A stretch of DNA of 52,953 nucleotides from a virus. The notes beneath the pieces are model-generated. The model was not told where the DNA came from and made no database searches. It saw only the letters and a program-made list of their open reading frames with translations. The stretch covers positions 1 through 52,953 of IMG/VR virus record IMGVR_UViG_3300022919_000001. One strand, 5' to 3'. This document shows positions 8,081 through 22,910 of the stretch, piece by piece. Position 1 is the first letter of the stretch; each line of letters opens with the position of its first letter. The position numbers and the translations under genes were made by a program.

Positions 8081-8296
8081 TTATAAAGTCAAGGGGGATT
8101 TAAGGAATTCTTTTAATAAAGGCCGTATAAAGTCCTTAGCAGCCTCGCTACAATCTTTTGGCACACGGAAGTTAATAGTTACCGTTTCAATCTTTTTAGT
8201 AGCGTATGGGGCACGTTTGGTGCCTGAGCGAACGCCACGGGGTTTACCGTGTATGTCTTGCGCTATTTCAATAAGTTTTCTATCTACTTTATCCAT
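8081..8296 (-). CDS. Hypothetical protein
   Basis: ORF track; operon context. Confidence 0.5.
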   Translation of the reverse strand: MDKVDRKLIEIAQDIHGKPRGVRSGTKRAPYATKKIETVTINFRVPKDCSEAAKDFIRPLLKEFLKSPLTL

Positions 8297-16515: not shown

Positions 16516-16784
16516 TTAATTGAATTTAAATATTCTAACTGTAGTTTTTCAGCCTGCGTTAACGGTTTGTTTGATTTGCGCTCTTTAGGTTCTGCTATTT
16601 TGATAGGCGCAAAATCGGGTTTGGTATCACTCAACAAATCACTATTAACAGGAAACCTCACACCGCCAAACTCACAGATTAACACCCCGATATGATCTGA
16701 AATAATCTGCACTTCGCTACCTTGCGCAGCATAAAGTATTTTACCAGTTCCGTGTGATCGTATATCTGTGAGTAGGTAGGGCAT
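16512..16784 (-). CDS. Hypothetical protein
   Basis: ORF track. Confidence 0.5.
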   Translation of the reverse strand: MPYLLTDIRSHGTGKILYAAQGSEVQIISDHIGVLICEFGGVRFPVNSDLLSDTKPDFAPIKIAEPKERKSNKPLTQAEKLQLEYLNSIK

Positions 16785-16836
16785 AATCTCTCTTTTATCT
16801 TATTTGTTGGTAGGGGGTTAATACATATAGGCAGGT

Positions 16837-17358
16837 TTAATATATCTTAAATCCTAAATTTATTATGTATTCAATATGCTTTTCTTTGGTATCTAATAAA
16901 ATATTATTCAACCCTCTATACATAAAAAACTCTTGGTCATAAATTAAAAATGTGTGTAGTTTTTTATGGTCAAAGTCACTCATTTCAATAACATCTTTTA
17001 GGTGCTGTTTGTGGTAACTCCAATGGTGTAATTCATTATTTTGGTTGAGTGTTTTAATATGTTGGGTAGCCCTACATGCGTTTGCTTTTTCAGGATAATT
17101 TTGTTTCCATGTTTTACCTGTAAAATTAAAAGGCTTATAAGGCTTAGCCGATGTTCGATAAAGTCTTACATTTTTTTCGCGTCCCCTCGCTCTTTCTTTC
17201 TCAACCCAATCAATATTGTTTCTTAAAAAGGATAACCTTTCTTTTACTCCATTTTTTTTACACTCAATACATTGGTGTAAATATCCATCAGCACAATTTT
17301 TGTGTTTATAAAAATCAGACAATGGTTTTTCTATATTACATATTTTACACTTTTTCAT
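16837..17358 (-). CDS. HNH endonuclease (free-standing)
   Basis: N-terminal CxxC..CxxC and NELHHWSYH..HKKLH HNH-type motifs. Confidence 0.7.
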   Translation of the reverse strand: MKKCKICNIEKPLSDFYKHKNCADGYLHQCIECKKNGVKERLSFLRNNIDWVEKERARGREKNVRLYRTSAKPYKPFNFTGKTWKQNYPEKANACRATQHIKTLNQNNELHHWSYHKQHLKDVIEMSDFDHKKLHTFLIYDQEFFMYRGLNNILLDTKEKHIEYIINLGFKIY

Positions 17359-17373
17359 TATGTAAATATATGT

Positions 17374-17399
17374 AAAAAGGCAATAAAAAACAAATTGCC
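17374..17399 (-). terminator. Terminator after the exonuclease gene
   Basis: GGCAAT/ATTGCC stem (17379-84 with 17394-99), then T5 on the minus strand. Confidence 0.5.
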
Positions 17400-17402
17400 A
17401 TT

Positions 17403-18260
17403 CTAATACATGTATGCAGGTTTATCGCACACATATATACCATCATACGATTCTGCCCAAAAATCGTATGACTGATTAAAGTTTTCCTTTAAAAGACATT
17501 CATTGAACTTATCAACTATATCTGAATAGTCTTGCAGTCCCTGTTGTATTAAAGATTTATCGAGTTTATGAACGGAAACCCCCCCCTTTGCGTCACAACA
17601 TATTATGTAGAACGGAAGCATAGTTTTTTCTGCGGTTAAATACATTGCAGCCTGCCCATGATACCACATACTAATAATAGTGCGCTGTGCGGCACGTGGC
17701 GAAGCGTCAGGCACCTTTTTTATATCAACACGTATCTTTGCACCGCCAGCGTCATAATAACCTGTAAAACCAAAGTTTTTAAACTTCCATTCTAATCGCA
17801 CCTCACGGTTTGGGCAAAGGTTAAGTATCTTTTTAGCCGCTCTGTTATGGGTGATGTTAGCCGCAATTATTGTAGCCTGTTGGAATTGGTTAAGCGGTAT
17901 AACTTCGCCTGTGCATGTTGATAAAAATTCCGCCTTCCATTCTTTGTAAACTTTCGTTGCACGTGGATTGCCGCCGCCAATTTCGGCTATCTTATCAGCG
18001 TCATCTAATACGGTAAACCGATCCTCAAACCTTTCAGGCTCTAAAACTAAGCAATGTATAAGCGTACCTAATAACATTGCATCGGTCTGTTTTTTCTCCC
18101 TGAAAACATAATCTATAAAATCGTTTGGAGAATTTCTAAAAGCCTTTAGCGAACTGAACGATAGCGTTTTGCTACCGTCCATTAAATCGCTTATAAGTTG
18201 ATCTATTTTTGATTGCCTATCTTCTAAGATTAGGACTTCGTCTATTTGTTCGGTTTCCAT
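17403..18260 (-). CDS. PD-(D/E)XK exonuclease (RecE/exonuclease VIII-like)
   Basis: LGTLIHCLVLEP and RVDIKK motifs; lies just upstream of the recT-like gene. Confidence 0.65.
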   Translation of the reverse strand: METEQIDEVLILEDRQSKIDQLISDLMDGSKTLSFSSLKAFRNSPNDFIDYVFREKKQTDAMLLGTLIHCLVLEPERFEDRFTVLDDADKIAEIGGGNPRATKVYKEWKAEFLSTCTGEVIPLNQFQQATIIAANITHNRAAKKILNLCPNREVRLEWKFKNFGFTGYYDAGGAKIRVDIKKVPDASPRAAQRTIISMWYHGQAAMYLTAEKTMLPFYIICCDAKGGVSVHKLDKSLIQQGLQDYSDIVDKFNECLLKENFNQSYDFWAESYDGIYVCDKPAYMY

Positions 18261-18262
18261 GA

Positions 18263-18451
18263 TTAAAATTTTATGACGTTTACGTTTTTAAGGACTTTAG
18301 ATGTTCGTGTCATTTCATCGCAATACAATGAAAAACACAATGAAAGTAAGGCTTTATCAGGGCCAGCACGGTTGTAACTTTCCGCACTGGCTTTTATCTG
18401 ACACTTTAGCAATTCCCTTACTTCTTTTCGGGTAAAGGTTTCCTGCGGCAT
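18263..18451 (-). CDS. Hypothetical protein
   Basis: ORF track; lies between the annealase and exonuclease genes. Confidence 0.45.
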   Translation of the reverse strand: MPQETFTRKEVRELLKCQIKASAESYNRAGPDKALLSLCFSLYCDEMTRTSKVLKNVNVIKF

Positions 18452-19257
18452 TATGCTTTAGCAGCCTCCTTTTCAGCTTTCTTAATAGCCTGTTTACGTG
18501 CGCCAAGTGCCTTAATAAACACTTCCTGCCCGTGTAAAGCTGAATTATCGTTATATATAGCTGTTACCTCATCAAGAGTTTTTGCATCCTCTATAGCCGT
18601 TAAAATCGCTTCATCAACTACAATTTCAGCAGGTGTTTCAATTTCGGTATAGTCGGTTTCCTCTGTAGTTGGCGCAAATGTATTACGGTTAAAATCGTAG
18701 TCATGCTCACTATCAATACCGCTTAATGAGTAAGCCTGCTTTAATGCGTGTGCCTCGGCAACTTTTTTAATCATGCTGCCCGGATTTGTTTTCCAAGCAT
18801 TATAACCCTTGTTAAATTCTTTAAAGTCAGCCCATGCAATAAATGCATCCATACCCTCACGCTTAACGATAGCGTAAGCGCCTACAATGTTGCCCCTATT
18901 AGCCTGCGTAAATTCATGCTCAATGTGGCCGCTAACAATGTTCATTTTAAATTTATCCCCCTCGCATACATAAGCAGAGCGAATGCCTTTAAAGTCTTTT
19001 TTACGTTGGGCGTTGGCAAGGAAACCGTCACGGCCTGCAAATATTAACATATCGCTACCCGACTTATAGCACCATATTTCTTTTTGAAATGGGTTAAGTC
19101 CCGTACTTGCGGCAACCGCTAAGAAGTATTTTAACTCCGCATCGGTAGTACCTTTAGCTACTGAATTTTTAATAATGTCAATATCTGTACTAGAGAATTG
19201 ACTGATTGCTGATTGTTCATTTTGGCTGATTTGTAAGCCGTCTTTTTTTTGTGTCAT
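18451..19257 (-). CDS. recT: RecT/Bet-family single-strand annealing protein
   Basis: ..STGLNPFQKEIW..FAGRDGF..GAYAIVKR..WKTNPGSMIKKVAEAHALKQAY pattern typical of Bet/RecT. Confidence 0.75.
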   Translation of the reverse strand: MTQKKDGLQISQNEQSAISQFSSTDIDIIKNSVAKGTTDAELKYFLAVAASTGLNPFQKEIWCYKSGSDMLIFAGRDGFLANAQRKKDFKGIRSAYVCEGDKFKMNIVSGHIEHEFTQANRGNIVGAYAIVKREGMDAFIAWADFKEFNKGYNAWKTNPGSMIKKVAEAHALKQAYSLSGIDSEHDYDFNRNTFAPTTEETDYTEIETPAEIVVDEAILTAIEDAKTLDEVTAIYNDNSALHGQEVFIKALGARKQAIKKAEKEAAKA

Positions 19258-19372
19258 GTTGTTAAATATTAAGTTGTTAAGTATTTATGGAATTTCTGTT
19301 TTTCCATATTAATTTATTTAGTTGTTAGTTTAAAAAGTTCGCCTTAAATACTGTCTTTTGCTTACATTTTTC
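19258..19372 (-). ncRNA. Putative right-end / omega-RNA (reRNA) region of the TnpB element
   Basis: 115-nt gap 3' of tnpB. 7-bp hairpin TATGGAA..TTCCATA (19286-19308). GTTGTTA(A/G) occurs three times, at 19258, 19273 and 19321. Boundaries are not defined. Confidence 0.25.
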
Positions 19373-20485
19373 CTACTTCACAGCCCCGACCAATGTCGGC
19401 AACTCCATAGGCTCACTGGCTCGTAATAAGCCTGAATTTCTTATATTTATGGCTGCGTTAACGTCACGGTCAATAGTTAAGCCGCAATCGCAATTATACA
19501 CACGCTCAATTAATGGCATATCTTTTATGTTGCCGCATCCTGAACAAGTTTTAGATGTTGGCTCAAACCTGCCTACTGCAATTAACTTTCGTCCCTTCCA
19601 ATCAGCTTTATATTTCAACATGGTAGCAAACTTACTCCAAGATGCATCTGAAATTGATAAAGCTAATTTTCTATTTTTAACCATATTTTTAACAGCTAAA
19701 TCTTCTATACAAATAGTACCGTATTGATTGGTTATCTCATTTGATACGTTATGCAAAAAGTGGTTGCGCTGATTAGTTATGCGTTCATGTAGTATTGATA
19801 CTCTTAAATTTGCTTTTTTACGGTTGGCCGATCCTTTTTTCTTACGGCTTGCTCTGCGCTGTAATACCGCCAGCCTGTCTAATGATTTTCGTAATAGATT
19901 AGGCGATTCGTATTCTTTACCATCCGATAGCACCGCAAATGTTTTTATCCCTAAGTCTATCCCTACAGTACCGCTATTATGCGGAAATGGGATATTTTCT
20001 GTTTGTACTAAAATAGAAGCGTAATATTTATTAGTTGGCGTTTTTGATATAGTTGCAGATTTTACCACGCCATTAAAAGCCCGATGTTGAATTACTTTTA
20101 TGCCCTCTCTGAACTTGCCTATAAAAAGAAAACCATTTTTAATAATTATACTCTCCTTAACAAAAAATGAATTTTTGCCTGATTTTTTCTTAAGGGCTGG
20201 AAATCCTGAACCCTTAAAAAATTTACTATACGCAACGTCCATGTTAAGTATCGCCTTATCCATAGAATCCCTCGTAACTTCATTTAGCCAAGGCAAATCT
20301 TTCTTTAAGTCGGTAAGTTGCTTTTGCAAGTCGTATGCAGATAGACTATGCTTACTGCCTCTATACGCTGCTATTTTAGTTTCCAAAGCCAAATTATAAA
20401 CAAAGCGAACACACCCGAAATGCTTTTCGAGCAACACTTTTTGAGTGCCTGTAGGATATATTCGATATTTATAATATTTATACAT
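19373..20485 (-). mobile_element. tnpB: TnpB (IS200/IS605-family OrfB, RNA-guided endonuclease) without tnpA
   Basis: MYKYYKYRIYPTGTQKVLLEKHFGCVRFVYN. RuvC triad motifs GIDLG, CIEDL and DRDVNAAINI. Zinc ribbon CSGCG..CDCG. Confidence 0.85.
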
Positions 20486-20527
20486 ATTCGTCCCTTTTCA
20501 TATCGCTAAGTGTTGTAGTGGGGGTGG

Positions 20528-20755
20528 TTAAAGCCACTCGCCTGTTTTTTTGTAATGGTTAAATTGTAAATCAGAAAACTCGCTTTCGCAGATGAATTTC
20601 ATATCAGCAAGCGTTTCTTTATCAAAAAACGCCTCGTTAACAGGTGCGCCAACTTCATTTTTAATGCCTAATAATATGGCATGTATCCCATCAACATCGC
20701 CTTCAATTTCGTACTCAATAGTGTAGTTATCGTATTGCAGTGTGTAAGTTTTCAT
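20528..20755 (-). CDS. Hypothetical protein
   Basis: ORF track. Confidence 0.5.
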   Translation of the reverse strand: MKTYTLQYDNYTIEYEIEGDVDGIHAILLGIKNEVGAPVNEAFFDKETLADMKFICESEFSDLQFNHYKKTGEWL

Positions 20756-20789
20756 ATCTTCCTGTGTTTAATGTTTGGAAAGGGTGGGG

Positions 20790-20948
20790 TTAAAGGAAAT
20801 GTAAATTCAATATATACAGCGCCAATTCTTTAGCTTCGTCTTTTGTAAGAGATATAGCGGTATCAAGCCTACCATGCTGTTTTATTTTGAATTCAGAAGT
20901 TTCCGTATTAAAATATACTTCTATATTATCGTTTATAATTACCATCAT
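20790..20948 (-). CDS. Small hypothetical protein (52 aa)
   Basis: Hand-called; its start overlaps the stop of the upstream small ORF. Confidence 0.35.
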   Translation of the reverse strand: MMVIINDNIEVYFNTETSEFKIKQHGRLDTAISLTKDEAKELALYILNLHFL

Positions 20949-21150: not shown

Positions 21151-21182
21151 CAAATATAGGGGGTGGTTTTGGTAATTGCAAA
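21151..21182 (-). promoter_or_regulatory. Leftward promoter (-7 TATATTTG, TTG 20 nt upstream)
   Basis: Minus-strand TATATTTG at 21151-21158 and TTG at 21179-21181. Confidence 0.5.
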
Positions 21183-22664: not shown

Positions 22665-22850
22665 ATGAGCATTAACCCACATAAAAACCAAATCGAATTG
22701 GCTGATAATAAAGGCCACGTTTATTTATCATTTGATAATGACGATACAACCCATACGCTATTAAGCACACCGCAAGGAACATTAATTATCCCCGAATCGG
22801 AAGCTGTAAAAATGGCTAATGAGATTTTAAATAACTATTACAGCCTTTAA
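22665..22850 (+). CDS. Hypothetical protein
   Basis: ORF track. Confidence 0.5.
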   Translation: MSINPHKNQIELADNKGHVYLSFDNDDTTHTLLSTPQGTLIIPESEAVKMANEILNNYYSL

Positions 22851-22910
22851 CCCCCTCTCACCCTCTCTTTATGCGGGTGGGGGAAAGAAAAAACACTTAA
22901 AAATAATTAT

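Follow-up and report, generated by a model that had tools for sequence, protein, structure and literature searches.

Introduction

The TnpB proteins are the ancestors of Cas12, and their known role is tied to a transposase: they restore the transposon after its excision. In the insertion sequence ISDra2 of Deinococcus radiodurans the guide RNA of TnpB, the omega-RNA, is reportedly cut from the tnpB mRNA. The present text deals with a tnpB gene in the IMG/VR virus record IMGVR_UViG_3300022919_000001, a complete phage genome of 52,953 bp with direct terminal repeats, which was analysed over its whole length and is called the window below. The gene and its guide RNA are probably, by a modest balance of the evidence, a free-standing TnpB-omegaRNA cassette adapted to phage genomes and not an IS200/IS605 transposon.

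The closest described system is that of ISDra2. The last hairpin of its guide RNA is stem 4, the UUC of the motif GUUCA(C/A) pairs with the stem-1 loop in a pseudoknot, and the guide begins two nucleotides past the pseudoknot strand (PMC10097598). On the protein side, residues K76, F77 and Q80 of a helix in the REC domain touch the target-adjacent motif (TAM; PMC10097598). Non-restorative homing by an IS605 TnpB has been shown for plasmids, as a gene drive (PMC11870625). Its phage counterpart, "transposon non-restorative homing", was called theoretical by a 2026 review (PMC13565253).

A TnpB Clade without Transposon Ends

Pattern-guided scans for relatives gave 80 metagenome, 78 viral and 6 genome loci. 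About 110 of some 150 non-redundant 3′ regions end alike, with ...GAAGC, a GC-rich hairpin and (G)GTAGTTCA(C/T/A), past which these canonical regions have no common sequence. The guide RNA of the canonical relatives ends with stem 4, then GTAGTTCAC, then the variable guide. About 100 nt upstream of their ATG stands a hairpin of near-stem-4 sequence, followed by an AT-rich promoter region, and the promoters are of the Bacteroidota type (TAnnTTTG). The upstream hairpin and stem 4 are taken here, from their position and likeness and from what is known of IS608 and ISDra2, to be the left-end and right-end subterminal hairpins bound by the IS200/IS605 transposase TnpA. Judged by these features, the approximately 110 relatives are ordinary IS200/IS605-type insertion sequences, many of them within phage contigs, and their insertions tentatively appear to follow TTTAN.

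In a quick maximum-likelihood tree of 93 TnpBs, the protein of the window falls in a clade of 12 rows that is nested among the canonical rows (SH-like approximate likelihood ratio test, SH-aLRT, 97). The sister of the clade, L104, retains stem 4. The closest relatives of the window protein, with 55-97% identity, come from the contigs L014/L015, L181-L183, L222-L225, L016/L019 and L103. The 3′ conservation of the clade reads ...GGAGTTGCCGAC-N4-GTCGGGGCTGTGAAG(C/T)AGGAA and ends within about 15 nt. Stem 4 and GTAGTTCAC are absent in all 12 members, and the position of the right-end hairpin is taken in the window by a 6-nt linker. The conserved left end is also absent upstream: several copies begin 0-3 nt from the stop codon of the preceding gene, the other members abut the upstream gene, and no left-end hairpin is present in the 42 nt upstream of the window gene, which consist of phage motif and leader. 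The members with enough context all sit among phage genes.

Outside phage-like and short metagenome contigs the clade was not met. No member at 55% identity or more was found in 401 sampled Bacteroidota genomes (best 53%, stem 4 present), in a one-genome-per-species pattern scan (best 48%, a metagenome-assembled genome of the Sphingobacteriia) or in 50,697 deposited phage records; 232 of these records hold TnpB homologues at E<=1e-40, none above 46% identity to the window TnpB. By tree and alignment, a monophyletic clade known from phage-like or short metagenome contigs only is thus shown to descend from canonical elements and to have lost both of the hairpins on which a TnpA transposase would depend.

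The transposase itself is missing as well. The preliminary description had stated that no tnpA is present anywhere in the genome, and the complete genome indeed gives no match at E<=1 to Y1_Tnp (PF01797), nor to the serine recombinases (PF00239). The same description had assumed an IS200/IS605 element with ends, which does not hold, as the left-end hairpin and the right-end hairpin (stem 4) are both missing. It had also named an ORF (open reading frame) without transposon ends in homologous phages as a finding that would speak against its model, and with the ends gone the situation comes close to this.

In one root/soil phage of 52 kb there are two tnpB copies (P0007 and P0010) that have diverged and lack stem 4; they lie at L016 8001-9191 and L016 3342-4499 (the latter equal to L019 8001-9158). 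Each is about 60% identical to the window TnpB. The copies face apart in divergent early regions and their predicted guides differ.

The Guide-RNA Scaffold

The part of the guide RNA that precedes stem 4 is kept. Twelve sequences align gapless over 59 nt, from stem 1 to GAAG. The scaffold of the window (Table 1) has the order stem 1, stem 2, stem 3, 6-nt linker, pseudoknot strand and GC. The omega-RNA expected by the preliminary description thus exists as a covarying scaffold, but not in the 115-nt flank where it had been placed: it spans the last 62 nt of the tnpB ORF, stop codon included, and 13 nt beyond.

In alignment A7 the three helices comprise 19 pairs, with 99.1% of the cells paired and 12 pairs changed on both sides. 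None of 500 shuffles reaches any of these measures, and slid controls pair at about 40%. Stem 2 has no unpaired cell among 60 and shows double changes in three of its five pairs. The tip of stem 3 (19386-19399) is the hairpin CCGAC-N4-GTCGG that had been noticed in the last codons of tnpB; it is present and belongs to the omega-RNA, and it stands far beyond chance because it covaries across the relatives. The single-sequence fold of the 3′ region gives z = -1.3 and is uninformative alone.

The 3′ strand of stem 2 also holds a change that can be placed in time. It reads GCAGG in most members and GUAGG in the window and L181. This change creates the TAG stop codon, so that the proteins of the window and L181, with 370 and 368 aa, fall short of the usual length of about 385 aa. 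On the opposite strand of the same two sequences CCUGU has become CCUAU, at the cost of V360M. The compensated change of the stop codon indicates that RNA pairing was kept within the lineage of the window, after the loss of stem 4.

The pseudoknot is retained next to the guide. The loop of stem 1 equals in position the ISDra2 stem-1 loop bearing the pseudoknot strand -105..-103 (PMC10097598), and GUAAGC is the counterpart of the canonical GUUCAC in the ...GTAGTTCAC end. Loop and strand read UUAC/GUAA in the window, L181 and L014; CUAC/GUAG in L182, L222, L223 and L225; GGAC/GUCC in L224; AAAC/GUUU in L016 and L103; and GUAU/AUAC in L120. An exact complement within 30 nt occurs in 10 of 12 cases within a sequence, against 8 of 112 cross-pairings, and pairing fails in only one of 48 cells. 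Large phages of an unrelated group, in which stem 4 is retained, covary likewise (GGUAA/UUACC, GGUGA/UCACC). Stems 1-3 and the guide-proximal pseudoknot are thus shown, on this pattern of paired changes, to be retained under strong compensatory evolution.

The covariance model built on the 75-nt scaffold (R1) scores 91.6 bits at its place in the window, where the next best match reaches 13 bits, and the genome holds one scaffold copy. No omega-RNA family of Rfam matches, either at the gathering threshold or at E<=10, where weak chance matches appear. No sign of a split or trans-acting guide RNA, i.e., a GGTAGTTCAC-type unit, an anti-repeat match, an array or a second scaffold copy, is found in the genome.

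Shortening of stem 4 was observed elsewhere too. At L120 4094-4165 (a viral TnpB, 48% identity) stem 4 was apparently lost independently, and in L209 (minus strand, near 330-420) it has shrunk to some 4 bp. Both retain the complementarity of loop and strand, and stem-4 shortening is therefore seen as recurrent in phage-borne copies. A different rearrangement is found at L218 ~8212-8290 (IMG/VR 3300045988_167254), from a group of 64-106 kb phages that keep stem 4. Here the unit of stem 4 and pseudoknot strand is tandemly duplicated (...AATCACC-TT-[second unit]...GTTACC), and the stem-1 loop of that gene fits the second unit only. The duplication could be a nested insertion or the start of a repeat array.

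The TnpB Protein

The domain order of the protein is HTH/WED-REC, then RuvC (D177, E261, D341), then the zinc-ribbon TNB domain. Its Pfam matches (HTH_OrfB_IS605 1.4e-17, OrfB_IS605 3e-29, Cas12f1-like_TNB 1.8e-23) all lie above the curated cut-offs, PHROG 506 ("transposase") matches at 9e-123, and the solved ISDra2 TnpB (8EXA/8H1J) aligns with residues 3-356 at E 3.3e-62. In the alignment GIDLG, IEDL and DRDVNAAINI fall onto the ISDra2 catalytic motifs. The residues D177, E261, D341 and C317/C332/C334 are invariant among 26 relatives. The RuvC triad and zinc ribbon that had been read from the sequence are therefore confirmed, and by these residues the ORF is an intact TnpB nuclease gene.

The residues that would read the TAM behave differently. 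At the ISDra2 TAM-contact positions the window protein has Y52>A, S56>Q, F77>D and Q80>D. The REC helix matching K76/F77/Q80 reads N-S-Q-S-L-Q near-invariantly in the canonical relatives (Q in all 63 of 63). In the clade without stem 4 it is variable (D5, Q4, A2, G1), and the window has T-R-D-S-M-D. Such a variable helix would fit a TAM freed from having to match the insertion site of a transposase.

These data bear on the possibility that the locus is a decaying relic, i.e., an old insertion sequence with eroded ends, in which the ORF is still intact by recency and both protein and RNA are functionless. The loss of both ends, the variable TAM-reading residues and the failure to find a guide target (see below) would suit a relic. 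However, the full ORF, the triad and the zinc ribbon persist in at least 12 lineages, whose identity falls to about 55%, and the compensatory changes in the helices postdate the loss of stem 4, one of them in the window's own lineage. Moreover, there are 15 amino-acid changes per 38 nucleotide changes relative to L014, which, as a rough count and not a formal test, indicates purifying selection. A relic is very unlikely on these grounds.

The 38 nucleotide changes that separate the window from L014 lie mostly in 19457-19650, the coding part of the zinc-ribbon/TNB domain. The scaffold has one difference and the 5′ two-thirds of tnpB are almost identical. The cluster may be a recombination patch.

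The Right Flank

The preliminary description had pointed to a hairpin and repeats in the sequence downstream of tnpB, where it expected the guide RNA. The hairpin at 19286..19308 is present (6 bp and a closing T-A pair, seven in all), as are the three (C/T)TAACAAC repeats (19258-65, 19273-80 and 19321-28), but they lie 50-100 nt past the end of the scaffold and are no part of it. Genome-wide, TTAACAAC occurs 5 times against 4.1 expected, i.e., without enrichment. The hairpin and two of the repeats belong to the leader of recT. In a soil contig, run X3, the stretch 19204-19323 is present with five differences; unrelated sequence follows, which starts with a backbone motif of these phages, and there is no tnpB. 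L006, with a RecT 82% identical and no tnpB, has the last ~50 nt of the leader in common. The possibility that the hairpin and TACTTAAC are a displaced stem 4 and pseudoknot strand was rejected, since they are absent elsewhere in the clade and present without tnpB in X3. An apparent resumption of X3 homology at about 19357 was discarded too: when aligned locally, the piece does not reach significance (95 of 2000 shuffles), and it fits the type of motif and leader of other early genes equally. X3 is used solely as evidence of a tnpB-less allele.

The flank and the left junction decide on the model of the preliminary description, in which the locus is a canonical tnpA-less IS200/IS605 element of the IS1341 type, mobilised in trans by a host TnpA, with the scaffold in the 115-nt flank and the guide abutting recT. 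It would gain from TTTAA preceding the block shared with L014, given that the canonical relatives appear to insert after TTTAN, from this block stopping 1-2 nt short of the next gene, and from the loose likeness of the hairpin and the TACTTAAC behind it to a stem 4 with TAGTTCAC behind it. On the other hand, the covarying scaffold finishes at 19360, and the hairpin and repeats are missing behind the scaffold of every other clade member and stand upstream of recT where there is no tnpB. The left-end hairpin is absent, and the TTTAACC... motif is phage backbone. The canonical model is thereby largely refuted and is held to be highly improbable. TTTAA at the left junction was likewise rejected as a TAM, as it lies in the backbone motif.

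The Predicted Guide and the Search for Its Target

Conservation across the clade ceases at 19360. By analogy with the spacing in ISDra2, the guide is predicted to start at 19359. The guides are entirely different between clade members.

A target search in phage and host sequences had been proposed. Neither the rest of the window nor 1.4 Mb of related loci holds a target of the guide. In the 401 Bacteroidota genomes there are 8 one-mismatch matches against about 17 for the reversed control, so that no match stands above control. A site at L049 118-147 has TTTAA and an 18-mer with 2 mismatches to the guide. It lies in an unrelated ORF, with a canonical TnpB 1.3 kb away on the contig, and was judged to be chance.

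Searches for the empty site in IMG/VR gave 25 chance matches to GTATTTAAGGCGAAC, without extended similarity, no match to the 26-mer of the X3 junction and no match to the 21-mer of the recT-leader hairpin. The YopX-like neighbour gene, used as a query to find a relative of the two-copy phage that lacks tnpB, gave no relatives.

Probable Mobility of the Cassette

The block shared with L014/L015 (Table 1) stands among different neighbours in the two phages. In L014 the 75-aa ORF gives way to a 97-aa ORF, and RecT and the DUF3799 protein give way to a 174-aa gene and a YqaJ exonuclease. Over the 12.4 kb of L014, only 3 of 29 called genes have a homologue in the window (TnpB 96%, one 92%, one 51%). 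A block of 97% identity amid unrelated genes shows that the cassette was recently exchanged between phages that otherwise differ greatly. In both the window and L014 the cassette sits before a recombination module. Some 100 nt after the scaffold, the predicted guide included, travel with tnpB in the block.

Relatives without tnpB exist, as the preliminary description had supposed. Such alleles occur beside recT (L006, L007 and X3) and beside the 75-aa gene (L237). The cassette can therefore be dispensed with and is probably mobile.

The recombination module also differs as a whole, 16782-19312 in the window (RecT, 62-aa ORF, DUF3799, HNH-like ORF) against 9176-10440 in L014 (174-aa gene and YqaJ). 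The differing modules lie between two short near-identical intergenic islands. Conserved intergenic islands occur at 16782-16821 and 20746-20792. From this arrangement the difference is read as a module exchange at conserved boundaries.

Genome Context

The neighbours of tnpB are recT and the 75-aa ORF, and the flanks are short, 42 nt upstream (20486-20527) and 115 nt downstream (19258-19372), in agreement with the preliminary description. Three consecutive leftward early genes (21170, 20792 and 20530) are preceded by the motif TTTAACCACCCCCAC, which is also present in the related contigs L181, L183 and X3. The homologue of the 75-aa gene in the tnpB-less L237 and L238 is likewise trailed by it. 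By this distribution TTTAACCACCCCCAC is a phage backbone motif, and the left edge of the cassette must consequently lie right of it, at 20517 or lower.

Table 1. Coordinates of the cassette, its guide RNA and the adjoining features in the window.
Feature	Position	Strand	Basis or remark
tnpB ORF, 370 aa	19373..20485	-	stop TAG 19375-19373
Core omega-RNA scaffold, 75 nt, without stem 4	19360..19434	-	gapless alignment, covariation, covariance model
Stem 1, 5 bp	scaffold 3-7/13-17; window 19432-19428/19422-19418	-	5′ pseudoknot strand is loop AUUAC (19427-19423)
Stem 2, encloses stem 3	scaffold 24-28/59-63; window 19411-19407/19376-19372	-	3′ strand holds tnpB stop
Stem 3, 9 bp	scaffold 31-40/45-53; window 19404-19395/19390-19382	-	double changes in 6/9 pairs
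Pseudoknot 3′ strand GUAA	19362..19365	-	then GC (19361-19360)
Predicted guide, 16-20 nt, AAAAGACAGTATTTAAGGCG	19340..19359	-	placed by analogy (ISDra2 spacing)
Block 97% identical to L014/L015	19259..20532	-	1,274 bp; flanks unrelated there
recT leader	19258..19339	-	outside omega-RNA scaffold
tnpB leader, 32 nt	20486..20517	-	hairpin absent; not conserved in other clade members
Backbone motif TTTAACCACCCCCAC	20518..20532	-	contains stop codon of 75-aa gene
RecT	18451-19257	-	directly downstream of tnpB
62-aa ORF	between RecT and DUF3799 gene	-	gene calls
DUF3799 PD-(D/E)xK exonuclease	17403-18260	-	Pfam; module 17403..19257

A C-rich motif, (T)TAACC(A)CCCC, was observed at 20518-20532, 20782-20792 and 21161-21170 (minus strand), and also at ~16800-16815 (minus strand) and 22847-22857 (plus strand). 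It lies 27-37 nt ahead of consecutive small early gene starts, several of these genes begin with ATGAAAACTTAC, and it is present in the related contigs L014, L181, L183, L237 and X3. The motif probably serves early regulation, and it may also be a hot spot of recombination at which genes are shuffled. Right after the RecT/exonuclease module stands a 173-aa ORF (16837-17358, minus strand) that matches endonuclease VII/HNH families of PHROG at 3.9e-10 and no Pfam family. This HNH-like ORF may be a protein-type free-standing homing endonuclease within the swapped module. In a scan for sigma-70 promoters and terminators, no signal of relevance to the cassette exceeded the shuffles; Bacteroidota promoters lie outside the model of the scan.

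Proposed Role and Its Alternatives

If the cassette is active, the tnpB mRNA would be processed into an omega-RNA with a 16-20 nt guide from 19359 downward. The complex of TnpB and RNA would cut DNA carrying the guide sequence next to a TAM. As the transposase is absent, the likeliest use would be that of a homing endonuclease gene, which cuts co-infecting relatives without the cassette. The genome with tnpB would then serve as the template for repair, for which the adjoining RecT/exonuclease pair is conveniently at hand, or else the rival would be excluded. By analogy, homing during co-infection is plausible. A broader reading takes the whole clade as a transposase-independent, RNA-guided homing endonuclease of phages, which spread by cutting cassette-less alleles with RecT/exonuclease repair, discarded the end hairpins and let the TAM drift. 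This extension is tentative and rather doubtful.

The nuclease could instead have been domesticated, with a fixed guide used in conflicts with the host, with a defence island, with a satellite or with an unrelated, competing phage. The gene would then be inherited vertically and reshuffled like an early gene, without homing. The joint movement of tnpB and the 100 nt that follow the scaffold, predicted guide included, is what a fixed guide would give, and most clade members are tightly packed between phage genes, with no spare flank. The gene also shares the backbone motif and leader layout with the neighbouring early genes, and TnpB derivatives that use fixed guides have been described in phages (TldR; PMC10705468). 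Guides that are wholly different between clade members are not expected from such a function, nor is the absence of a bacterial-genome match above control, whereas presence/absence polymorphism at the same site is the expectation for a homing gene. A fixed-guide function is accordingly considered unlikely.

Several points weigh against a free-standing, active cassette. The block shared with L014 runs exactly from the repeated motif to the next start codon, and module shuffling in mosaic phages could explain it without a nuclease. The exchange of the block may be either guide-directed homing with co-conversion of about 100 nt of right flank, or ordinary shuffling at intergenic islands. The variable TAM-reading residues fit relaxed selection on DNA targeting equally well. 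The guide has no target in the sequences searched, and TAM plus guide was not read in any relative. The register of the pseudoknot was picked by complementarity in 4 of the 12 sequences (L182, L224, L103 and L120), the strand standing at a fixed offset of 10-11 nt in the other eight. To our knowledge, the function of a TnpB without stem 4 has been demonstrated by nobody. Stem 4 of the ISDra2 RNA touches the WED domain (PMC10097598).

Significance

The protein family and the principle are already known. A lineage without ends and without stem 4 that by its sequence keeps the guide RNA was not found described. With 75 nt, the scaffold is the smallest natural one of an omega-RNA known to us. The literature searches found only speculation on nuclease-active TnpBs of phages. 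The clade would show what becomes of TnpB once the link to the transposase is cut while the nuclease remains active, a step that has been predicted as non-restorative homing and is undocumented in phages (PMC13565253). The system is compact and testable: its protein has 370 aa, its scaffold 75 nt, and the position of the guide is defined. An omega-RNA that naturally lacks stem 4 also marks dispensable parts of the scaffold, which is useful for miniature genome editors, and the variable TAM-reading helix suggests that the clade may hold several TAM specificities.

Comparison with Known Systems

The window shares with ISDra2 TnpB and its right-end element RNA (reRNA; PMC8612924, PMC10097598) the protein architecture, the triad, the zinc ribbon, stems 2 and 3, and the pseudoknot between the stem-1 loop and 3-4 nt two positions before the guide. 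In contrast to ISDra2, it lacks tnpA, a left end and the stem 4/right-end hairpin, and the scaffold measures 75 nt instead of 116 nt. The TAM-contact residues differ as well, which argues that the TAM of the window is not TTGAT. Finally, the gene lies under a phage leader in the early operon of a lytic-type phage.

The IS1341-type elements and the palindrome-associated transposable elements (PATEs), IS200/IS605 derivatives that are mobilised in trans, also lack a transposase in cis. They keep both TnpA-binding hairpins, whereas the window has neither, and mobilisation in trans by TnpA is therefore not expected. The TldR proteins are nuclease-dead, RNA-guided repressors derived from TnpB, and some are encoded by phages; like the protein of the window, they stand outside the transposon lifestyle (PMC10705468). 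In TldR the RuvC domain is inactivated or truncated, whereas the triad is intact in every member of the window clade. TranC, an early Cas12 (PDB 9JFO matched), likewise has a remodelled guide-proximal part of the omega-RNA. TranC splits the omega-RNA into tracrRNA and crRNA, whereas the guide of the window is contiguous with its scaffold. Unlike TranC and type V CRISPR-Cas, the window genome has no array, repeat unit or second RNA locus.

The free-standing homing genes of the T-even phages (SegF, SegB and MobE) resemble the cassette in their setting. They likewise lie between conserved phage genes, show presence/absence polymorphism, occur as near-identical cassettes in divergent phages and have recombination genes adjacent. 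In contrast to these genes, recognition by the cassette would be achieved by RNA and not by protein.

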